From a virus (taxonomy: Duplodnaviria > Heunggongvirae > Uroviricota > Caudoviricetes): a stretch of 20,163 nucleotides of DNA. The notes under the pieces are model-generated. The model was not told the DNA's origin. It did not search any database and saw nothing but the letters and a program-made list of their open reading frames with translations. The stretch lies in IMG/VR virus record IMGVR_UViG_2718218396_000005; one strand, 5' to 3'. Below, one piece after another: positions 7,318 through 20,163 of the stretch. The position numbers and the translations under genes were made by a program. The stretch's first letter is position 1. The number at the start of each line of letters is the position of its first letter.

Positions 7318-7473
7318 TTTAACGTATGTCGCCAATTTCCTGATGAAGGTGACTGGCGACTTGCTGTTGTATGTCCTTCTCAGAAAATTGTTTTTGAATA
7401 ACAAATAACAGGATTTTATAATCTCTTAACCTTATAACATGTGTGGTCTGAAATAATAATTAAGGAGATTATC

Positions 7474-8046
7474 GTGCTATCTTACTTAATGGCAATTCAC
7501 TTTGTTTTATTTGGAAACTCTACTAATTTAAAAAACTTCTGGAAACATGAAGTAATTCGGCGGAAACGTATGGATATCTGGAGGCTTTTAAGAGAGAAAA
7601 AACAGCGTAACCGGAATTTCCTTTTCTGGTGGCGGTTGGCTAACGAAATGTATATTAATGGTAATAAATTACATAAGAAAGCAGCCAAAAAGTTAAACAG
7701 TAAAATAATTAACAAGTTTGGTTGTGAAATAGGATTGGGCGCAAATATTGGAAAAGGGTTGACAATTCCCCATCATGCTGGAATTGTTGTTCATTTTGCT
7801 GTTGATGCGGGTGAAAATCTGGTATTACGACAGAATACTACCATTGGACAGATAGATGGTGATATGCCTAGTTCAAGAGTAAAAATTGGTAGTAACGTTG
7901 ATATCGGAGCTAATTGTTGCATCATTGGATTATCACGTAAAATTGGGGATAATGTAAAAATAGGTGCAATGTCTTTTATAAATAAAGATATACCATCAAA
8001 CTGCACATATATAACTAAAAAGAGTGGTGTTGTATTGTATAAATAG
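7474..8046 (+). CDS. Hexapeptide-repeat (left-handed beta-helix) acyltransferase, serine O-acetyltransferase-like; low-GC cargo gene
   Basis: Strong RBS TAAGGAG at 7461-7467 with GTG 7474 at 6 nt (ATG 7489 is an alternative; the track's GTG 7441 would put the RBS inside the gene). Hexapeptide repeats IGLGANIGKGLTI / HHAGIVVHF / IGSNVDIGANCCIIG / IGDNVKIGAMSFI, and an N-terminal helical segment resembling CysE/WcaB-type acetyltransferases. Visibly AT-rich relative to the flanking tail genes. Confidence 0.75.
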   Translation: MLSYLMAIHFVLFGNSTNLKNFWKHEVIRRKRMDIWRLLREKKQRNRNFLFWWRLANEMYINGNKLHKKAAKKLNSKIINKFGCEIGLGANIGKGLTIPHHAGIVVHFAVDAGENLVLRQNTTIGQIDGDMPSSRVKIGSNVDIGANCCIIGLSRKIGDNVKIGAMSFINKDIPSNCTYITKKSGVVLYK

Positions 8047-8622: not shown

Positions 8623-9679
8623 TGAACCGCCCCGGGAATCCTGGAGACTAAACTCCCTGAGAAAGAGGTAAACAGGATGACTAAAAATACACGTTTTTCC
8701 CCCGAGGTCCGTCAACGGGCAGTCCGTATGGTTCTGGAAAGTCAGGGCGAATATGACTCACAATGGGCGGCAATTCGTTCCATTGCCCCAAAGATTGGCT
8801 GTACACCAGAGACTCTGCGTGTGTGGGTTCGTCAGCATGAGCGGGATACCGGGGGCGGTGATGGTGGACTCACCACCGCTGAACGTCAGCGTCTGAAAGA
8901 GCTGGAACGTGAAAATCGTGAACTGCGCCGCAGTAACGATATCCTTCGCCAGGCTTCCGCTTATTTTGCGAAGGCGGAGTTCGACCGCCTCTGGAAAAAA
9001 TAATGCCGCTGCTGGATAAGCTGCGTGAGCAGTACGGGGTCGGACCGGTATGCAGTGAACTGCATATTGCCCCGTCAACGTATTACCACTGTCAGCAACA
9101 GCGACATCATCCGGATAAACGCAGTGCCCGTGCGCAGCGCGATGACTGGCTGAAGAGAGAGATACAGCGCGTATACGATGAAAATCATCAGGTGTACGGT
9201 GTGCGTAAAGTCTGGCGCCAGTTGTTACGCGAAGGTATCAGGGTGGCCAGATGTACAGTGGCGCGCCTCATGGCGGTTATGGGACTTGCCGGTGTTCTCC
9301 GGGGTAAAAAGGTCCGTACTACCGTCAGCCGGAAAGCCGTTTCCGCAGGCGACCGCGTAAACCGTCAGTTCGTGGCAGAACGTCCTGACCAGCTGTGGGT
9401 GGCTGATTTTACTTACGTCAGCACATGGCAGGGCTTCGTCTATGTGGCGTTCATCATTGATGTGTTTTCCGGATGTATCGTGGGGTGGCGAGTCTCATCG
9501 TCTATGGAAACGACATTCGTGCTGGATGCACTGGAGCAGGCGTTGTGGGCCCGTCGGCCGTCCGGCACAGTCCATCACAGTGATAAAGGTTCTCAGTATG
9601 TATCACTGGCCTATACGGAGCGACTAAAAGAAGCAAAACTGCTGGCATCAACAGGGAGTACAGGTGACTCGTATGACAA
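8623..9679 (+). mobile_element. IS629-like element, second copy, truncated at the 3' end (first 1057 of 1310 bp); no right inverted repeat and no target duplication
   Basis: Colinear with copy 1 from the left end TGAACCGCCCCGG (8623) through position 9679, with one mismatch seen in the translation (copy 1 T353 vs copy 2 C8776; OrfA Cys vs Arg). From 9680 the sequence is unrelated and AT-rich. Confidence 0.8.
8677..9003 (+). CDS. IS629-like transposase OrfA (copy 2)
   Basis: 108-aa ORF identical to copy 1 OrfA except C->R at residue 34. Confidence 0.8.
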
Positions 9680-9692
9680 TGTATTTTATTAG
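9003..9692 (+). pseudogene. IS629-like transposase OrfB, truncated (about 225 of 295 codons); the ORF reads through the deletion junction
   Basis: Identical to copy 1 OrfB through ..STGDSYDN, then 3 junction-derived codons (VFY) and a stop. It lacks the C-terminal part including the E of the DDE region, so this copy cannot supply its own catalytic subunit. Confidence 0.8.
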
Positions 9693-9711: not shown

Positions 9712-10026
9712 TTATTCTGGGAATAAGGTCTGAATATTCTTTTTTATTTTATAAAAATTGCATTCAACTCCGCTAGGCTGATTAGCCTGGTATGTTTCCT
9801 TGATGCTAACGGTATTGAAGGGGAGGTTGTCCTCTGGCCATTCGGCCATCCAGTAGGCAAATGCTGGGTTGCGCTTTATGAGTGCTAGCCCAGCCAGAAA
9901 GGCCGCGCGTTGCGCGCGGCTGCGTTCGGAGGCTGGCAGGCTATCGAGGTAATTGCACGCCTCCTGTTCACTCTTGACGGCGGCGGGCTTCAGATAGAAA
10001 CTTATCCGTCTGGTTGGTGTCGTCAT
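9712..10026 (-). CDS. parR: ParR-like ribbon-helix-helix centromere-binding protein (type II partition adaptor)
   Basis: 104-aa ORF just downstream of parM. N-terminal region ISFYLKPAAVKSEQEACNYLDSLPASERSRAQRAAFLAGLAL parallels R1 ParR as I recall it (IAFKLNPDV.....DTLDSIPQGERSRLNRAALTAGLAL). It ends soon after a ..LFPE motif, so it is shorter than R1 ParR. Confidence 0.7.
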   Translation of the reverse strand: MTTPTRRISFYLKPAAVKSEQEACNYLDSLPASERSRAQRAAFLAGLALIKRNPAFAYWMAEWPEDNLPFNTVSIKETYQANQPSGVECNFYKIKKNIQTLFPE

Positions 10027-10030
10027 TGGT

Positions 10031-10990
10031 TTACTCCTTGTTCATTGCGTACAACCCATTAACCAGAGCAAACTGTGGCACCCCGTCCGCGATGAAAGTC
10101 GCATTAACTCCGCAGGCTTCGCGGATAGCGGTTGCCACAATCTCCGCCCCGCCACCGACAACCATCACCCGCCCGTAACCCGAAAAAACCGCCAGCGCGC
10201 GGATCACGCGTTGTTTCAGTGTTTCTTCCTTTTCACGAATAACCGCCATCAGGCTGGCGTAATGCGCGTCATTGTGGATGTGCTGGCGCAGCCAGGCTTC
10301 ATCATGGCGATGTTCGATAATGGTATTGGCGATGTGGTGACTGGTGCGCATACCGTTAGTGGCCATCACCGACAGTACGGCATCGGCCATCAGAGAAACG
10401 CCTACGTGTGGATCGCAAAACACCTGGCTGATACCTGCCAGTTGCCCCTGAACCTTTGCCACATCCAGCGTGGTTCCGCCCAAATCCACAATCAGCAGGG
10501 ATTCAAACGGACTCATGTCAGCCAGTGCCTTAAAGCCAGCAGGAATGGATTCAGGCATAACCCGTACGTTACGGATAGTGAATGCTTCGCCGTTCTGGTA
10601 CTCCACCGGGCGCATGACGTTCGCTTTTTTGCGGTTGATGTTGGCCATGTCCGGCTGTGCGTTTGTATCGAAATACTCGCTCAGTGGCAGGGTGACAACC
10701 ACATCCACTTCCTGTGGTGTGATGCCTGATTTGACCAGCGCGTGATGAATGGCAATTACATTCACATCGCTGTACTGGTATTGCGTGTCGGTCGTCTGGA
10801 CAAAGCGATCGCTGACCGGATCAAAACCATAGCGCACGCCATCAAGCATGTAGTTCGCGGGCTGCGTGCCACCGAATGGCGCAGACCATTCCGACTTGAA
10901 GCTGTTCGGGCTGATGGCGTTGCGGCGTTCGCCGTTCTCAGTCCATGCCAGCTTGATGTTGGTGGAGCCGTCGTCGATACAAATTTTCAT
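10031..10990 (-). CDS. parM: ParM/StbA-like actin-fold ATPase (type II plasmid partition motor)
   Basis: 319-aa ORF. Blocks IDDGSTNIKL, ISPNSFK, YSDVNV..HHAL, MPESIPAG, DLGGTTLD, GVSL, GGGAE and LVNGLY line up along the whole length with R1 ParM as I recall it. Confidence 0.8.
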   Translation of the reverse strand: MKICIDDGSTNIKLAWTENGERRNAISPNSFKSEWSAPFGGTQPANYMLDGVRYGFDPVSDRFVQTTDTQYQYSDVNVIAIHHALVKSGITPQEVDVVVTLPLSEYFDTNAQPDMANINRKKANVMRPVEYQNGEAFTIRNVRVMPESIPAGFKALADMSPFESLLIVDLGGTTLDVAKVQGQLAGISQVFCDPHVGVSLMADAVLSVMATNGMRTSHHIANTIIEHRHDEAWLRQHIHNDAHYASLMAVIREKEETLKQRVIRALAVFSGYGRVMVVGGGAEIVATAIREACGVNATFIADGVPQFALVNGLYAMNKE

Positions 10991-11132
10991 GTCGCTTTTC
11001 CTTATGTTGATTAATTAATCGGTTACAGGATTTTTAAATCCCGCTTTTGCCTGTTTTGTGCGCGCTTCATATATCGCGGCGCGTTTTTTGCTCATTTACG
11101 GGATTTGTGAGTCCCGTTTCTGTCTGTTTTTT
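10991..11132 (-). promoter_or_regulatory. Candidate parC-like centromere/promoter region upstream of parM, with two imperfect direct repeats of about 34 bp
   Basis: ACAGGATTTTTAAATCCCGCTTTTGCCTGTTTTGTG (11027-11060) and ACGGGATTTGTGAGTCCCGTTTCTGTCTGTTTTTTG (11099-11132) are about 80% identical, and each holds a short internal inverted repeat. The second copy lies inside the 3' end of gene A. Confidence 0.3.
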
Positions 11133-13889
11133 GTTTCCACTGGTCAGGCCACCCCGCAGCAGGTCTGCTTTGCGGCTGGCGCGTTCAGTGGTTTCACTGA
11201 TTCTCTGTGCGTGCTCTGCGTCGCGGATGGCGCGCAGCATGTCAGAAAGCACGGTAACGGGTGTTTTCATGGTGTTCTGGTCCTGCTGAAGTGTGGATGC
11301 CAGGCGTGCGGCGGCTTCAGGGTCTGATGCCCCCAGCTGTGCCAGATAGCTGGCGACCGGGTTATGGCGGATCTCCGTGCTGCTTACGCCATGATTACGG
11401 CTCAGGCGCTGCCAGAGCTGCGTGATTCGGCTGTCCGGGCGGGTATCCGGTTTGCGTACAATTTCAAATCCCTGCGGTGCAATGATGCTGCCGTCAACGT
11501 ACAGACTGCCGCCCCGTAACAGGTGCTGCATCTGTTGTTCACCGATATGCAGGCCGAGAGATTCAGCAGACTCCCGCCATTCTTTAGCGAGTAATTCGTG
11601 GTTATCAGGCAAAGGCCGCTGCTGTTTGCGGCTCTGTGTCCAGCTCTGCATTTCATCACTGCTGTTTTTTGCCTGTTTGTCACGAAGCGAACGCATCAGC
11701 GCCCGGCGTTCGTGCCGTTTCAGTGAGCGCATCCATTCGTTCACGTCAACGCCGTCAGGAAGCTGCGGCCACGGTGCTGGCCGTTCTTCCGGCTGTTCTG
11801 TCCCGTTGTTGTCCGTTTCCTGTACACGGGGACAGTTATTGCCACGAGTCCAAGGGGCGGCAGGGCCGCCCTGAAGGTCAAAACCATTTTCGCGGGCGCT
11901 GTCTTCTACTCCCGGTTTACGTCTTACCAGCTTCCAGTTATCCGGGTGCGTGCACACACGGGAGGATTCCCCGATGAGTGGTGACCAGATCCCGTAAATC
12001 TGTACGCTCTGTTCGCCGTAATCGTTCAGCTCATCTGCGAGGTCGTAGGCGGTGCGAATCAGGTAGTCCTTGCGTGGAACAAGTACGCCTCCCTGTTTCT
12101 CAATGTAGGTGGTAAAACATCCGGCATCAGCGGCAGCAAGAACCGCATCCATTGCGTCATCCTTCAGCCGTTGCGGGCCTTCCGGGTTGCGTGCCATCTG
12201 GCTGGCAAGGCGACGCAGTTCACGCCACACCTGACGGGAGGGGATGCCAAAGAACTGGAACTGGCGGACCCGGTGAAGGCGCGCCCAGCCAATGGCGCGT
12301 TCCACGCTCTCGGTCATTGATTTTCCGGTTTCGTGGTCAACGCGTGGTTTGCCTGTTTTCGGGTCGATGCCATCCACGGCGCGGCTGTCCAGGTTTTTTC
12401 CGATGTAGGTGGCGATGTAGCTGGTTGGCGTGCCTTTTGAGCCGTCGACATACTCCGCCTTAAAGCGCGGAGTAATATCATCGCCCAGCTCGTGACGATC
12501 TTCCTGAATGGCAATATCGCGGGTGTGGGACACAATGGTGTCGATTTCTTCCGGATGAGCAAAGACCATCATATGCCAGTGCACGGTGCCGTCATGGTGA
12601 GGCTCCACCGTGCGGATGCCATACCAGCGCAGGCCGTCGCGGTTCAGTTTCTTGCGGACCGCCGCAAAAAACGTGTTAACCAGGTAATCGCTGGAGTCGC
12701 GCATGGTGGCCCCGTTCCATTTGGGATTCGGATGACCGTTCTCTGTTGTAGCGTGGTATTTTGACGGGCAGGTGACAGTCAGAAACACCGCTTTGTCGCC
12801 ACGGGCTTCGGCCAGAAGTTCCAGCCCCTTCATGGTGGCCATCATTTCTGCCTTACGGTGAACCGGGTTACTTACTCCCGCGTAATACACTGTCTCGAGA
12901 TCAATCGTGAACCCGTCTTCGTTTTCCAGCATGAAACTTTTCAGGAAATCGCGTGTTTTCTCGCGCTGTGCGCGAAACTCGCTTAACGCGTCCTGGCTCA
13001 GATAGGGCGATGTTTTTCTGGAAACCAGACAGGCGGCGCGGAGTTGTTCTTCTCTCCACTCGCAACGTAACAGCCACAGTTTGCGTTTCCACCATTCCGC
13101 ACAGGTCAGGCGAAGGATTGCGCCCGGCAGCAGCTCCGTGTCCGGTTCGTTCCTCCGGTCTTTGTCTGTTGTCAGTGCGTCATAATGTGGAGGCATGGCG
13201 TGCAGGTGTAACGCCATGCGGGCCAGCATCTGATACGCCTTCAGCGTTACATCCATGGTCAGTTCGCCATCGGTCGCGCCAAAGCCATCGCAGAGTTTTT
13301 CGAAGGTGCTGCTGAACATCGCCGCCGTCATGGTGGCCAGCGTCTGTATCTGGTGTTTGTTGAGCTGCGGCAGGTAAAGCAAATCGTCCAGGCGTTCGCG
13401 TCCGGCAAGGGAGCGATAACCCTGTGTCAGCCAGCGGTGATCGGTGCGCTCCAGACGTTCGAATATTTTGCGCAGGTTTCCGCGCGCGTAGCGTTCAGCC
13501 TGCCAGCTCTTTTTGCCTTTCTGACGATCGGCTTCCTGTTTTTTGCGCAGGAAGGAGAGGTGGCGAATAAGCGGATCGCGCAGATAGGACGGCAGCAGGC
13601 GCAGCGAGGCCATGGCTTCATCCACCGCACCGCGTGCCTGTTTTCTGGCGTCTCCTGCCAGTGTGATGGTTTTGTCCTGTTTTTCCTGTGCGTCCAGGCT
13701 TTTATTAATCAGGTTGCCCAGCGGCGTTGCGGAGAACGCCGCATCAGCCATTTCCTGGCGGCGCTCGTTCTCTACCCGGTAGGCATCCAGCCAGGAGGAA
13801 AGCGCGGATTCAGGAGCGGGGATCCCCGTTCCTTCACGCCCCACTGCGTGGCGCGGTTGTTGCCAGTCCCTGATGTACTCTGCCGTCAT
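11067..13889 (-). CDS. A: Replication initiation endonuclease (P2 gpA / phiX174 A superfamily rolling-circle initiator)
   Basis: 940-aa ORF with an HUH-type motif (GTVHWHMMVFAH) and a paired-tyrosine motif (SYIATYIGKN) resembling the phiX174 A active site YVAKYVNK. It sits at the end of the early operon as in P2. Confidence 0.8.
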   Translation of the reverse strand: MTAEYIRDWQQPRHAVGREGTGIPAPESALSSWLDAYRVENERRQEMADAAFSATPLGNLINKSLDAQEKQDKTITLAGDARKQARGAVDEAMASLRLLPSYLRDPLIRHLSFLRKKQEADRQKGKKSWQAERYARGNLRKIFERLERTDHRWLTQGYRSLAGRERLDDLLYLPQLNKHQIQTLATMTAAMFSSTFEKLCDGFGATDGELTMDVTLKAYQMLARMALHLHAMPPHYDALTTDKDRRNEPDTELLPGAILRLTCAEWWKRKLWLLRCEWREEQLRAACLVSRKTSPYLSQDALSEFRAQREKTRDFLKSFMLENEDGFTIDLETVYYAGVSNPVHRKAEMMATMKGLELLAEARGDKAVFLTVTCPSKYHATTENGHPNPKWNGATMRDSSDYLVNTFFAAVRKKLNRDGLRWYGIRTVEPHHDGTVHWHMMVFAHPEEIDTIVSHTRDIAIQEDRHELGDDITPRFKAEYVDGSKGTPTSYIATYIGKNLDSRAVDGIDPKTGKPRVDHETGKSMTESVERAIGWARLHRVRQFQFFGIPSRQVWRELRRLASQMARNPEGPQRLKDDAMDAVLAAADAGCFTTYIEKQGGVLVPRKDYLIRTAYDLADELNDYGEQSVQIYGIWSPLIGESSRVCTHPDNWKLVRRKPGVEDSARENGFDLQGGPAAPWTRGNNCPRVQETDNNGTEQPEERPAPWPQLPDGVDVNEWMRSLKRHERRALMRSLRDKQAKNSSDEMQSWTQSRKQQRPLPDNHELLAKEWRESAESLGLHIGEQQMQHLLRGGSLYVDGSIIAPQGFEIVRKPDTRPDSRITQLWQRLSRNHGVSSTEIRHNPVASYLAQLGASDPEAAARLASTLQQDQNTMKTPVTVLSDMLRAIRDAEHAQRISETTERASRKADLLRGGLTSGNKKQTETGLTNPVNEQKTRRDI

Positions 13890-14333: not shown

Positions 14334-14564
14334 TTAATGGAGTTTGTTTTGCTGCTGGATGAGCTGTTGAAACTCGTGCAGATCATCCGCCAGATAGCTG
14401 AAAACAGAGGCGGAATAAATGTTTGATAGTGCGTGGCTGCGCTCATGCAGCATATTGATGTGCATGATTTGCGCGACGCGTGATGCGCGGGAAAGTCTGC
14501 GGTTGATTTCAGTCTGGATGTGACGACGCTCCGCGATAGCGCGGTGCTGTTTGCGGTCTGCCAT
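14334..14564 (-). CDS. Hypothetical small basic protein (76 aa)
   Basis: ORF in the track with an AAGAGG-type RBS (reverse complement of about 14572-14577) 7 nt upstream of the ATG. Basic and helical in character. Confidence 0.5.
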   Translation of the reverse strand: MADRKQHRAIAERRHIQTEINRRLSRASRVAQIMHINMLHERSHALSNIYSASVFSYLADDLHEFQQLIQQQNKLH

Positions 14565-17206: not shown

Positions 17207-17410
17207 TTAGCTGTTAGCCAAAGCGTCTTTTAACATCGCCACAAGGTTTACTTCAGGCTTTTCCATTTTGGCGCGTTTGGGGCGGATAATAATTCGACCG
17301 TCAGCCAACATCTTTTTGCATGTATTAAGAGGGATACCTGTTATCTCTGCATATTTCTGCAGGGATACATAGGGGGCATTCACATTGATATTGATGGTTA
17401 TACCTGACAT
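17207..17410 (-). CDS. Cox/Apl-like small helix-turn-helix DNA-binding protein (excisionase/regulator-like)
   Basis: 67-aa ORF. The segment PYVSLQKYAEITGIPLNTCKKMLADGRIIIRP parallels the P2 Cox HTH region as I recall it (PYQEFAKLIGKSTGAVRRMIDKGKLPVI). It is the second gene of the lytic-side operon. Confidence 0.55.
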   Translation of the reverse strand: MSGITININVNAPYVSLQKYAEITGIPLNTCKKMLADGRIIIRPKRAKMEKPEVNLVAMLKDALANS

Positions 17411-17426: not shown

Positions 17427-17633
17427 TCAGGAAGATTTGTTTTGTTCTTTCTGGGTTAGCTCTAGGCCGCGAAGGGAGATCATGCGCGCCATGTTAGAGG
17501 ATGAGCGTTGTTCTTTAGCTGCCATTTCATCAATGACGGCTCGCTCCTCGAGGGACAGCCGAAGTGCCAGTCTTGGACCTGTGGCGGTGTTACGCGGAAT
17601 GCGTGATCTGGTATCGTGAAGAACTTGTTTCAT
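17427..17633 (-). CDS. Ribbon-helix-helix (CopG/Arc-like) regulator, first gene of the lytic-side operon (Cro/Apl-equivalent position)
   Basis: 68-aa ORF. RLSLEERAVIDEMAAKEQRSSSNMARMI has the beta-strand plus helix pattern of RHH proteins. It is divergent from the repressor gene. Confidence 0.55.
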   Translation of the reverse strand: MKQVLHDTRSRIPRNTATGPRLALRLSLEERAVIDEMAAKEQRSSSNMARMISLRGLELTQKEQNKSS

Positions 17634-17675
17634 AGTGGTATATTGTGATCATCTAATAGCTCGTGAAATCATTTT

Positions 17676-17693
17676 GGTATCAAAAAAGATACC
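17676..17693. promoter_or_regulatory. Candidate operator: perfect palindrome GGTATC-N6-GATACC in the divergent switch region
   Basis: GGTATCAAAAAAGATACC at 17676-17693, 15 nt upstream of the repressor ATG. Further GGTAT half-sites occur at 17636-17640 and 17609-17613. Confidence 0.4.
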
Positions 17694-17708
17694 TGTCAAG
17701 GTTTTTGT

Positions 17709-18113
17709 ATGAAAAATGATATTGGTCGGCGGTTGCGTGAGGAAAGGGAAAGATTGGGACTTAGTCAAGTTGCCATGAGCGACATTGGTGGAGTCAAAAA
17801 GCTAACTCAGCTTAGATATGAGAAAGGAGATAGCTTTCCTGATGCTGCGTATTTGGCAGCGCTGTCTCGTTTTGGCCTTGATGTTCAGTATGTTGTGTTG
17901 GGAATTCACTCACCTGAAACTTATAACGATGATGAGCAGGAATTGATTACTCGCTTTCGAGCAGCTTCGTTAGATGTGAAAAACGCGGTGATTGGGGCTT
18001 TAAAAGGTGCGATCAGTGAAAAGGAAACTCAGCCATCAGGACGTGAGTTAAATATTTCTGGTGGTAATAACCGTATCGCTGGTCGTGACTATAACGAAAC
18101 TAAGGGTAGGTGA
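17709..18113 (+). CDS. XRE-family helix-turn-helix immunity repressor (P2 C / 186 CI equivalent)
   Basis: 134-aa ORF with an N-terminal HTH (RLREERERLGLSQVAMSDIGGVKKLTQLRYEKGDSFPDAAYLAALSRFGLDVQYVV). It is divergent from the Cox-like operon and co-directional with int, as in P2/186. Confidence 0.75.
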   Translation: MKNDIGRRLREERERLGLSQVAMSDIGGVKKLTQLRYEKGDSFPDAAYLAALSRFGLDVQYVVLGIHSPETYNDDEQELITRFRAASLDVKNAVIGALKGAISEKETQPSGRELNISGGNNRIAGRDYNETKGR

Positions 18114-18128: not shown

Positions 18129-18779
18129 ATGGCCGTCAACTCAAACGGTTCAAACAATCGCGTTGCTGGGCGTGATTTTCACGAAAAGAATATTCAGATA
18201 GAGCGATATGATGGTTCTCATACCGTCAATATCGCAATCCCTTCGAATAATGATGATGACGATCGCCCTTTGCTTAAGGCTCAGCGTAAGGAGCTAAATA
18301 GCTTGGTTGCTGCTATTGCAGAAGCTAGCAATACTGAAGCGTTTATTATTTGGCAAAAAGTACATGCGGAGATTGGTGTAGCTGGTATTGATGATATGAC
18401 AGTAAATCAATATAAAACAGCGGAGAGTTTTCTGCATGCAATGCTTGAGCGATGTAAAGATCATGATGCCTGTAAGGCTCTTGTAAGTTTATTACTACGT
18501 AACAGTGAAGACTGTGGACTTCGACAAAAACTTCTGCGGTATTGCCATATCAATTTCGGTACAGGACGTTTAAACGATCTTACTCGTTCTCAGTTACAGT
18601 CTGCATTGTCGTGGTTAGAGCAACAATCGGCATCAAGCCACATAGAGAGTTCGACCTTACCAGAAGTCCGACTTCGTGCTTCAGAATTAATCCGACTTTA
18701 TCCAAAAGAAATAATATTCTTTATCTGCGTAGGGGTTTTGGTAGGCGGTGTCATTTCTAGGGCGTTTTTTAATTTGTAA
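18129..18779 (+). CDS. Hypothetical tail-anchored membrane protein (216 aa); AT-rich cargo gene between repressor and integrase
   Basis: ORF in the track with a GGGAGG RBS at 18118-18123. Soluble N-terminal domain plus a C-terminal hydrophobic segment (IIFFICVGVLVGGVISRAFF). Its N-terminus repeats a motif from the repressor C-terminus. Confidence 0.6.
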   Translation: MAVNSNGSNNRVAGRDFHEKNIQIERYDGSHTVNIAIPSNNDDDDRPLLKAQRKELNSLVAAIAEASNTEAFIIWQKVHAEIGVAGIDDMTVNQYKTAESFLHAMLERCKDHDACKALVSLLLRNSEDCGLRQKLLRYCHINFGTGRLNDLTRSQLQSALSWLEQQSASSHIESSTLPEVRLRASELIRLYPKEIIFFICVGVLVGGVISRAFFNL

Positions 18780-18808
18780 TCTTACTTGAGCTAAATTGAG
18801 GTAATGAT

Positions 18809-19156
18809 ATGAAAGTAAAAAAGGTTCAACTATTAGTTACTTTTTTATCTATGTTTTCTTTTTCCGCCGTCGCAATGCCTTTTAAAACTATTGAACGTGA
18901 GAGTTTCAATGGGGTATGGCCATTTAATACTGATGAGGTTCAATTACAGTGTCTTGATGGTAATCCTTATGTGATGAATTTTGACGATAATAAGTTATAT
19001 GCACTTACAGGTTTGGCTCGAATAAAAGGTAAAACATTTGGTGCGTTACCGTTAGATAACAATAATCCATTTTGGCTAGATAATGATGCCGCCCCAGGGT
19101 TAAAAAAGAGTCTGGGGGATGTCACTAAGGCTGCATTTGATTTATGTGATAAGTAA
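18809..19156 (+). CDS. Hypothetical small exported protein (115 aa) with N-terminal signal peptide; AT-rich cargo gene
   Basis: ORF in the track with an N-terminal hydrophobic stretch ending in an AVA-type motif (LVTFLSMFSFSAVAMPF). Two cysteines (C48, C113) could form a disulfide. Confidence 0.6.
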   Translation: MKVKKVQLLVTFLSMFSFSAVAMPFKTIERESFNGVWPFNTDEVQLQCLDGNPYVMNFDDNKLYALTGLARIKGKTFGALPLDNNNPFWLDNDAAPGLKKSLGDVTKAAFDLCDK

Positions 19157-19161
19157 CTAAA

Positions 19162-20163
19162 ATGTCGGTTCGTAAGATTCCATCAGGTAAATGGCTTTGT
19201 GAATGTTATCCCTACGGGGCATCGGGAAAACGCATTCGTAAACAGTTTGCGACAAAAAGTGAGGCGCTCTCTTATGAGCGCCGTTTAATGAATAGTAGAG
19301 TTGGAGACGAGTTTCAAGATGGTTCTGGTCCTCGTCTTTCTGAGTTGATTGCTCGTTGGTTTGAGATGTACGGTAAAACCTTGTCCTCTGGTGCAGAGCG
19401 CAAAGTCAAACTTGAGGCGATTTGTTCCAGGCTGGGAGATCCATTTGCTTCTCAGTTTGACAAAAATATGTTTGCTACTTATCGGGAAAGAAGGCTATCA
19501 GGAGAATGGAATCCCAAGGGGAAGAAAAAACTTAGTGAAGCAACCGTTAATCGCGAGCAGTCATATCTACATGCTGTTTTTGCCGAACTGAAGCGCCTTG
19601 GGGAGTGGTCTGGTGAAAACCCCCTGACTGGTATTCGCAAGTTTCGTGAGGAAGAAAAGGAACTGGCGTTTCTGTATGTAGATGAGATTGAACGCCTTCT
19701 GATTGCGTGTGATGAGTCACGGAATAAAGATTTGGGGGTTGTTGTCCGTATTGGGCTTGCGACTGGTGCTCGGTGGAGTGAAGCAGAAGGATTAAAGCAA
19801 TCTCAAGTACTGCCCGGTCGAATCACATTTGTTAAAACTAAAGGAAAGAAGAACCGCACTGTACCGATTTCACCTCAATTGCAAGCTATGCTTCCTAAAA
19901 AACGAGGAGCGCTATTTTCACCATGTTATGAGGCTTTTGACGCTGCAATTAAGAGAGCGAAGATCGAGCTTCCTGATGGGCAATTAACTCATGTGCTACG
20001 TCACACGTTTGCCAGTCATTTTATGATGCGGGGTGGAAATATTCTTGTGTTGCAAAAAATACTGGGGCATAGCGATATAAAAATGACTATGCGTTATGCG
20101 CATTTTGCTCCAGGTCATTTAGAGGCTGCTGTTGAATTGAACCCTTTTGACAATAGAGGGTAA
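19162..20163 (+). CDS. int: Tyrosine site-specific integrase (P2/186 Int family)
   Basis: 333-aa ORF ending exactly at the window edge. Catalytic signature near the C-terminus (..ATGARWSE.. / HVLRHTFASHFMMRGGNILVLQKILGHSDIKMTMRYAHF). Position and orientation relative to the repressor match P2. Confidence 0.9.
   Translation: MSVRKIPSGKWLCECYPYGASGKRIRKQFATKSEALSYERRLMNSRVGDEFQDGSGPRLSELIARWFEMYGKTLSSGAERKVKLEAICSRLGDPFASQFDKNMFATYRERRLSGEWNPKGKKKLSEATVNREQSYLHAVFAELKRLGEWSGENPLTGIRKFREEEKELAFLYVDEIERLLIACDESRNKDLGVVVRIGLATGARWSEAEGLKQSQVLPGRITFVKTKGKKNRTVPISPQLQAMLPKKRGALFSPCYEAFDAAIKRAKIELPDGQLTHVLRHTFASHFMMRGGNILVLQKILGHSDIKMTMRYAHFAPGHLEAAVELNPFDNRG

Follow-up and report, generated by a model that had tools for sequence, protein, structure and literature searches.

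What are two extra genes doing between immunity repressor and integrase in a P2-like prophage? We addressed this question with a virus record of 20,163 nucleotides (nt) (IMG/VR IMGVR_UViG_2718218396_000005; Caudoviricetes), and "the window" below means this whole stretch. The two genes encode a protein of 216 amino acids (aa; open reading frame (ORF) 216, 18129..18779, + strand) and a protein of 115 aa (ORF115, 18809..19156, + strand). P2 itself has no gene at this place: we confirmed that the 115-nt interval between its C and int genes is empty. A sequence-only reading of the window had taken both genes for cargo, of the kind that provides superinfection exclusion, abortive infection or lysogenic conversion. 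That proposal holds for ORF115, whose product is exported and whose gene lies in a slot of low GC and changing content. It fails for ORF216, which is no insert but a conserved core gene of the lineage, present in 12 of 12 P2-like loci and in pairs from Mu-like phages. We assign ORF216 to a conserved immunity cassette of two genes, of which it is the second, because its position is fixed, the pair recurs in Mu-like phages and its product shares a covarying terminal peptide with the repressor. We propose, with a probability of about 0.55 judged from sequence comparisons, that ORF216 would be a membrane-tethered modulator of the repressor that works via the shared peptide, and that ORF115 would be a periplasmic moron.

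When the interval between int and the repressor gene was compared across related prophages, as the sequence-only reading had suggested, the slot beside int was variable, whereas the gene for the Flk_N-domain protein (ORF216 in the window) was constant. This gene lies 2-18 nt downstream of the repressor gene in all 12 P2-like loci, down to 33% identity. The loci are from E. coli, Klebsiella, Rosenbergiella, Mixta, Izhakiella, Enterobacter, Erwinia, Symbiopectobacterium, Hafnia and Serratia. The divergent genes for an Arc-like repressor (17427-17633, - strand; phrog_3431, 4.3e-27) and a Cox-like excisionase/repressor (17207-17410, - strand; phrog_575, 1.2e-27) are kept beside the cassette in all of these loci.

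The pair of repressor and Flk_N protein was also found further afield, since more distant homologues of the repressor are encoded in metagenomic contigs and in Mu-like transposable prophages (Pectobacterium, Gilliamella and Pseudomonas aeruginosa). Such loci have no P2 integrase; they encode an rve transposase, a MuB-like ATPase, a holin, an SLT lysozyme and Mu gp27. The repressor gene is directly followed by the gene for a 194-206-aa tail-anchored protein, which carries the Flk_N label in most loci. The partner from P. aeruginosa (locus L027) has no Flk_N label and was judged to be Flk_N-like by eye. In locus L028, the follower has no Flk_N domain, yet it is membrane-anchored and bears the peptide motif described below. 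Starting in reverse from three distant Flk_N proteins, we found an upstream repressor with a C-terminal tail in each case (3/3). Of the tailed repressors, five of five were followed by a motif-bearing membrane protein. In contrast, a tail-less close relative of the repressor (P0327, in a P2/186-like prophage; one such context was examined) had no Flk_N or motif-bearing neighbour. The two cassette genes travel together between temperate phages of the P2-like and the Mu-like type.

As the next gene after the Flk_N partner, the Mu-like prophages usually have one for a lipoprotein with a lipobox Cys after the signal peptide (L023 4999-5373, L024 4998-5384, L031 4138-4665, L032 3100-3201 and L030 1018-1362), and one of these is BamE-like. 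Therefore, envelope-targeted cargo follows the cassette in both types of phage.

The peptide that links the two proteins lies at the end of one and the beginning of the other. In the window, the repressor ends with NISGGNNRIAGRDYNETKGR and ORF216 starts with MAVNSNGSNNRVAGRDFHEK. The tail peptide of the repressor, LNISGGNNRIAGRDYNETKGR (18048..18110, + strand), and the N-terminal peptide of ORF216, VNSNGSNNRVAGRDFHEK (18135..18188, + strand), were aligned as two copies of one motif, with the cores NRIAGRDYNE and NRVAGRDFHE. When all six frames of the window were searched, the motif matched exactly twice, in the repressor tail and in the N-terminus of ORF216. It was present in all 12 P2-like pairs, and the repressor tail was invariant across repressors that are only 40% identical. 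More generally, short Flk_N proteins bear such a motif at the N-terminus, whereas true Flk does not.

The peptide differs among lineages yet matches within each repressor-partner pair. For example, the repressor tail is FNGDISGQFAGNQIINN in Pectobacterium and the N-terminus of its partner is FNGTAQGQFSSRDIINI. The corresponding peptides are GEGQIAGGNIYTT and TAEQIAGRDIYNI in Gilliamella, QQFNGPVGTVTSGDVVN and QQFHDRVHQVAAGDIKN in P. aeruginosa, FHGAVSGGVAARDIINN and FQGNVDGGVAGRDIVNQ in L028, TFHGSVGQSVAGSITNKSGVTFNV and DFHGEVGQAAGGDINNYGVNISFV in L029, and FKDVGQYIEGSVNQAGLTLNV and FHGGVGQVAEGDINNFGGINIHL in L031. For the pair in the window, the local alignment score was 62, against 20.4 ± 4.5 for shuffled sequences, and none of 2000 shuffles scored as high. 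Across nine pairs, the scores of cognate tail and N-terminus were 33-67 (shuffles, about 19 ± 4), and in eight of the nine the observed score was unmatched by any of 2000 shuffles. When the six motif classes were re-paired in all 720 permutations, the true pairing gave the highest total.

Two other explanations were considered and rejected. Gene conversion was rejected as the source of covariation, because only 41% of the 157 identical residues are specified by the same codon and the nucleotide identity is 0.59; the two DNA copies of the motif in the window differ at synonymous sites. In other words, the likeness of the peptides is kept at the protein level. Fusion of the repressor and ORF216 by stop-codon read-through was also ruled out. 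Although the two genes are in frame here, the repressor gene ends with TGA TAG TAG, and in other loci the frame relation is 0, 1 or 2.

The motif was also observed outside the pair. In locus L030, a third small protein (707-1003; 98 aa, two transmembrane helices), whose gene is downstream of that for the Flk_N partner, starts with the shared motif (VTVVGDNNITASGDLNIG). Protein P0174 resembles a fusion of a Flk_N protein with an L030-type small protein and has extra copies of the motif. Several membrane proteins may plug into the same peptide system.

The sequence-only reading had described ORF216 as a protein with a C-terminal anchor, and this is correct. The sole hydrophobic segment of the protein is aa 195-213 at the extreme C-terminus (IIFFICVGVLVGGVISRAF; 18711..18767, + strand; best Kyte-Doolittle 19-residue window, 2.36), modelled as a helix of residues 192-215. 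In the alignment, all homologues have YPKE followed by 14-22 hydrophobic residues at the end. Because ORF216 has no signal sequence, its N-terminal domain is probably cytoplasmic. In the AlphaFold2 model (predicted local distance difference test (pLDDT) score, 73), a low-confidence region (aa 1-38) precedes a helical domain (aa 50-176), a linker and the terminal transmembrane helix. The pLDDT is about 80-90 for the helices of aa 50-176 and below 50 for aa 1-27 and 31-38. The peptide motif lies in the low-confidence region, as expected if it folds upon binding. Fold searches with the model gave nothing specific; weak structural and profile hints led to the C-terminal domains of Ant/ORF6C-type proteins.

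The helical domain belongs to the Flk_N family. Pfam PF27202 (Flk_N) is the precomputed label on all ORF216 homologues of 58-98% identity, and the domain (aa 45-166; 18261..18626, + strand), which is the part that aligns with Flk, shows the strongest conservation in the homologue alignment. Residues 37-166 match the NCBIfam PRK10715 Flk profile at positions 20-149 of 339 (E 8.2e-16), and BLASTP against E. coli K-12 Flk gave 28% identity over 124 aa (E 2e-10). However, ORF216 fails the equivalog for Flk proper (58.2 bits against a cut-off of 353), with one Flk_N repeat and 216 aa. It also matches phrog_5825 (8.5e-103) and, weakly, phrog_6521 ("membrane protein, moron"). In RefSeq it is named "hypothetical" or "membrane protein". 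The Flk_N family is small, with 90 representatives at 50% identity among 1.84 billion proteins.

The partner of ORF216 is a putative immunity repressor of 134 aa (17709..18113, + strand; Pfam HTH_31/HTH_3; phrog_8 transcriptional regulator, 2.6e-14). Its XRE-type helix-turn-helix (HTH; aa 5-60) is followed by a helix (about aa 75-100) and, after a flexible linker, by a Gly/Asn-rich C-terminal tail. In the Pfam scan, only the HTH was detected and no S24 peptidase domain. Because the repressor has no S24/autocleavage domain, an input to the switch that does not depend on RecA is conceivable. In the reading that we prefer, the two copies of the peptide would either bind each other (homotypic pairing) or be rivals for a single site. 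Via ORF216, some of the repressor pool would be held or released at the inner membrane, and maintenance or loss of lysogeny would thereby be coupled to a non-RecA input. Since the partner in L028 and the third gene in L030 carry the peptide without a Flk_N domain, pairing between peptides at the membrane is favoured over binding of the tail by Flk_N. Coupling seems to depend essentially on the peptide plus the membrane anchor and not on the Flk_N domain.

Several points weigh against this proposal. We infer engagement of the repressor by ORF216 from the sequences, and its effect may be one of sequestration, stabilisation or sensing. The loci were found via these same proteins and the census is a non-exhaustive sample, in which the contrast between tailed and tail-less repressors depends on a single tail-less context. 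For ORF115, the support comes from its fold and location only. The prophage in the window is disrupted by insertion sequences (IS) and probably defective, and selection on the switch in O157 may therefore be relaxed. Finally, the conserved place beside the repressor is also compatible with an exclusion function that is co-inherited with immunity, as is the case for lambda rexAB.

This last point leads to the alternative that survives best, although we consider it unlikely: both genes may be independent accessory factors expressed in the lysogen, with ORF216 acting at the inner membrane on an incoming phage and not on the repressor. Linkage to the repressor would then merely secure expression in the lysogen, again as for lambda rexAB. 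Both proteins are indeed predicted to reach the membrane or the periplasm, the repressor promoter would drive the operon, and ORF216 has the weak match to a moron phrog. Moreover, the interval from repressor to int is known for defence or exclusion genes in K139-type P2-related phages (PMC9122126), and 8% of P2 defence systems lie between int and primase (PMC13586616). However, PADLOC gave no match to any defence model for ORF216 or ORF115 at E values up to 1. More importantly, this alternative leaves unexplained why the peptide is copied from, and covaries with, the repressor tail, why tail and partner occur together, and why the gene stays fixed beside a slot that changes.

A second alternative keeps the peptide but changes its reader. 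The shared peptide may be a tag that a third factor recognises, such as a protease, an adaptor or an antirepressor, and ORF216 would be a membrane-bound decoy or competitor that protects or buffers the repressor, resembling lambda CIII, which protects CII from the membrane protease FtsH. Two proteins that are presumably made together display the same peptide at exposed ends, a terminal tag is a typical form of degron, and membrane proteins other than Flk_N bear the same tag. A 76-aa "derepression protein" (about 14334-14564, - strand; L001 2735-2965; RefSeq WP_000775057.1; PF25738 in relatives) is annotated in the same prophage, and this protein is a candidate for the antirepressor of the prophage. 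On the other hand, lineage-specific covariation would demand co-evolution of the third factor, and no common third gene lies beside the cassette when Mu-like and P2-like loci in hosts of different orders are compared. It would also be unusual for a single degron to stand at the C-terminus of one protein and at the N-terminus of the other, as the two copies do. We regard a tag as quite improbable.

Slightly more doubtful still, in our estimation, is the idea that the peptide is a prion-like (amyloid or beta-arch) motif by which a membrane-anchored sensor (ORF216 and its relatives) templates the repressor tail into an inactive co-assembly. In phages of both types, P2-like and Mu-like, lysogeny would then be switched by an event at the envelope. 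The likeness to amyloid signalling pairs (fungal HET-S/NWD2, bacterial BASS and E. coli Bab/Agp, BASS11) is in the arrangement: adjacent genes, a short motif rich in Gly, Asn and Gln at the C-terminus of the upstream product and at the N-terminus of the downstream product, matching pair by pair, and one membrane-directed partner. Bab/Agp is found in an E. coli prophage hotspot, and adjacency with a shared terminal motif is the hallmark by which such pairs, Bab/Agp included, were discovered. In contrast to those pairs, a DNA-binding repressor is here combined with a Flk_N tail-anchored protein, and not a Bell or HeLo effector with an NLR (nucleotide-binding domain, leucine-rich repeat) or Agp sensor. 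The O157-type motif is short and charged, and a Pfam scan at E values up to 0.1 gave no match of the RHIM or PP type. If the amyloid reading were true, the pair would be without precedent among amyloid-type signalling pairs, both in controlling a transcription factor and in deciding between lysis and lysogeny of a phage, and host Flk would be a domesticated relative that lost the motif.

Finally, ORF216 is very improbable as a lysogenic conversion factor that acts like host Flk on the flagellar type III export gate (or that of the locus of enterocyte effacement): it shares the Flk_N domain and tail-anchor topology with Flk, which inhibits the flagellar export specificity switch (PMC13344023), but the 28% identity covers one of the two repeats of Flk, the score (58 against 353 bits) is under the NCBIfam cut-off, the family occurs in hosts and phages irrespective of flagella, and the repressor-matching peptide is missing from true Flk.

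ORF115 is a different case. As the sequence-only reading had noticed, it has a signal peptide, which is of the Sec type (aa 1-22; MKVKK, a hydrophobic core and AVA|MP). It exceeds the gathering cut-off of Pfam PF10709 (DUF2511; 28.4 bits against 21) and matches phrog_2950 (8.7e-40). Against the structure of YebY (7n0j), the sequence gave an E value of 0.0027. The AlphaFold2 model (pLDDT 75.8) matched 7n0j in Foldseek with a probability of 1.00 and a TM-score of 0.73-0.80, and it matched MlbQ (2mvo/6qfp), also with a probability of 1.00. A Trp residue and a disulfide-forming Cys pair have been described in YebY (PMC8689200). Trp37, Cys48 and Cys113 of ORF115 are at the positions of these residues in E. 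coli YebY, and we infer a Cys48-Cys113 disulfide bond. Judging from these sequence matches and the model, ORF115 is a Sec-exported periplasmic protein with the YebY/DUF2511 fold and a predicted disulfide bond.

The gene does not have the AZY operon context (yobA-yebZ) from which a copper-linked role would follow; its neighbours are the Flk_N gene and int. It was found in 507 of 5,426 complete E. coli genomes, and relatives of 59-72% identity are encoded in Citrobacter, Klebsiella, Serratia, Erwinia, Scandinavium and Rosenbergiella. The function of YebY itself is not settled, and in some Enterobacteriaceae, homologues of yebY have already been remarked between genes for a XerD-like recombinase and for a phage repressor of the CI type (PMC8689200). 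ORF115 is an ordinary, already-noticed kind of moron. Most likely, it would be an exclusion or conversion factor that is expressed in the lysogen and binds a periplasmic ligand.

We compared the slot between the Flk_N gene and int in 11 loci (8 distinct by content) from about ten genera. The slot contained a DUF2511 protein, an acidic DUF8087 protein, a 288-292-aa protein, a 242-244-aa protein with two transmembrane helices, two small ORFs, or nothing, and its GC content was lower than that of both flanks in all 11 loci. Because the content of this low-GC slot changes between related prophages, ORF115 is a true moron. The claim that both genes are lower in GC than the backbone stands clearly for ORF115 (0.353) and barely for ORF216 (0.412), which lies little under its neighbours (0.440 for the repressor and 0.446 for int) and agrees with the early/immunity region as a whole (0.433); the window as a whole is at 0.511 and gene A at 0.575.

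Among the other occupants of the slot, the 288-292-aa protein is soluble (L003 5647-6513 and L015 5635-6513, from Klebsiella and Enterobacter), and the 242-244-aa protein has its two transmembrane helices at the N-terminus (L013 5653-6387 and L018 5713-6441, from Mixta and Hafnia). The acidic DUF8087 protein is encoded in L007 (5840-6097), L014 and L017. In L020 (5609-6257), the slot encodes a Zn-ribbon protein and a C-terminally anchored coiled-coil protein, and this pair also follows a tail-less repressor in L025.

The last gene of the row encodes the tyrosine integrase (19162..20163, + strand; Pfam Int_N 5e-32, Phage_integrase 2.5e-22), adjoining host yecA in the RefSeq context. Both accessory genes are intact and have Shine-Dalgarno sequences: ORF216 starts with ATG 5 nt downstream of GGAGG, and ORF115 starts with ATG downstream of GAGG. 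The gaps between the repressor, ORF216, ORF115 and int genes are 15, 29 and 5 nt. A pattern scan revealed no + strand terminator-like site and no internal + strand promoter-like site ahead of ORF115. The sole internal + strand promoter-like site is at 19056-19084 (9/12 match), within ORF115 just upstream of int. Because the gaps are short and such sites are absent before ORF115, these sequences fit a single operon from the repressor to int, and co-transcription of the four genes is plausible.

The repressor gene and those of the Arc-like and Cox-like proteins are transcribed divergently, like C and cox of P2. Between the two operons, the control region (17634..17708) contains candidate operators and an early promoter, which are pattern matches only. 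A direct repeat, TCATwkTGGTAT, has copies at 17630 and 17669, and the first begins 4 nt ahead of the control region. A palindrome, GGTATC-a6-GATACC, is a candidate operator, and a promoter-like site on the - strand, TTGACA-17-CAAAAT, is a candidate early promoter.

Many E. coli O157:H7 chromosomes contain the segment 17600-20163 with 100% identity, beside yecA, and it has a DNA match in 599 of 5,426 complete E. coli genomes. This type of cassette is present in about 10% of complete E. coli genomes (525-599 of 5,426 by DNA match). The gene lengths and gaps (int 1002 nt, 5, 348, 29, 651, 15 and 405) are those of ECs2617-ECs2620 of prophage Sp13 in strain Sakai, with the integrase as ECs2617, ORF115 as ECs2618, ORF216 as ECs2619 and the repressor as ECs2620. 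According to the literature, Sp13 is equivalent in name to CP-933T of EDL933. The segment is also 98% identical to Escherichia phage 520873 (Peduoviridae, Xuanwuvirus; NC_049344). This is the sole sequenced phage record with these genes; there (L002 3529-5555) both accessory genes are unannotated, and the frames of ORF216, ORF115 and int are each fragmented, by either sequencing errors or decay.

Elsewhere, the window contains P2-type tail genes, replication gene A, two IS3-family copies and a ParM/StbB pair. The IS3-family copies (254-1467 and 8677-9692; HTH_Tnp_1 orfA and rve orfB) flank the block of tail genes, and therefore the prophage is rearranged and probably defective; in the second copy, orfB is shortened to 229 aa. 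A ParM/StbA-like actin-type ATPase (319 aa; StbA_N 1.8e-82) and a StbB-like protein (104 aa) are encoded at 9712-10990 on the - strand, beside replication gene A (11067-13889), at the position of the accessory hotspot between A and cos of P2. They are plasmid-type partition genes within a P2-like prophage, and PADLOC gave no match for them. Between tail gene gpU and the second IS copy, a GTG-started ORF of 201 aa (7441-8046, + strand) has a sub-threshold hexapeptide-repeat match; it may be a genuine gene or a remnant of gpD.

P2-like and many Mu-like repressors have no RecA-cleavable domain, and how such prophages sense when to exit is only partly understood. A co-evolving peptide link would provide a concrete route from the cell envelope to the genetic switch, and the linkage of ORF216 to the repressor points to an undescribed lysogeny control. 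Relatives of the cassette occur in many Enterobacterales and in P. aeruginosa. For mining of morons and defence genes, the boundary of the cargo slot is redrawn, so that it contains only the gene adjoining int. A literature search that combined Flk, prophage and repressor returned nothing, and ECs2618-2620 appeared in a gene list only, with no expression data; we did not find the repressor/Flk_N cassette with its covarying peptide in the literature searched.

How do these proteins compare with known systems? Flk (Fluke/RflH) of Salmonella and E. coli is a tail-anchored cytoplasmic protein of 331-333 aa that keeps the flagellar export gate in early mode (PMC13344023). It resembles ORF216 in its cytoplasmic Flk_N helical domain, single C-terminal anchor and enterobacterial distribution. 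In contrast to ORF216, which has one repeat and the repressor-like peptide and is phage-borne, Flk has two Flk_N repeats and a Pro/Gly-rich N-terminus without the motif, and it is encoded on the chromosome with no repressor neighbour (pdxB-flk-yfcJ; K-12 flk is L011 4951-5946). The representatives of the Flk_N family are mostly phage-type proteins of about 200 aa. Because of this, and because Flk has a duplicated domain and no N-terminal motif, chromosomal Flk may be a domesticated derivative of a phage protein. This gives a family context, and a possible phage origin, to a flagellar regulator that has long been enigmatic.

ORF115 is comparable to YebY (E. coli yobA-yebZ-yebY) and to MlbQ, a lantibiotic self-resistance lipoprotein, in fold, signal peptide and the positions of Trp37 and Cys48-Cys113. 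It differs from them in sequence (about 26-32% identity), in the absence of copC/copD-type neighbours and in its place in a prophage cargo slot. In K139-type phages, variable genes between repressor and int of a P2-related prophage are likewise expressed in the lysogen (PMC9122126), and Glo of K139 is a periplasmic protein linked to immunity or exclusion (PMC4870250). Here, however, the variable slot starts only past the conserved Flk_N gene and holds no known defence system, and tblastn revealed no sequence similarity to K139-family phages (orf2/glo), its only matches among sequenced phages being phage 520873 and weak Ralstonia ones. In its behaviour, the slot of ORF115 fits the hotspot from repressor to int of K139-type phages (PMC9122126) and the minor hotspot of P2 between int and primase (PMC13586616).

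The role that we propose for ORF216 has its closest parallels in small phage proteins that control a non-cleavable repressor by direct binding. Antirepressors and sequestration cases of this kind include 186 Tum, P22 Ant, P4 epsilon, CTXphi RstC and VP882 Qtip. To our knowledge, they are soluble, are transcribed apart from the repressor under inducing conditions and have no peptide in common with it. In contrast, ORF216 is membrane-anchored and, by the predicted co-transcription, would be made from the same operon as the repressor whose terminal peptide it shares.

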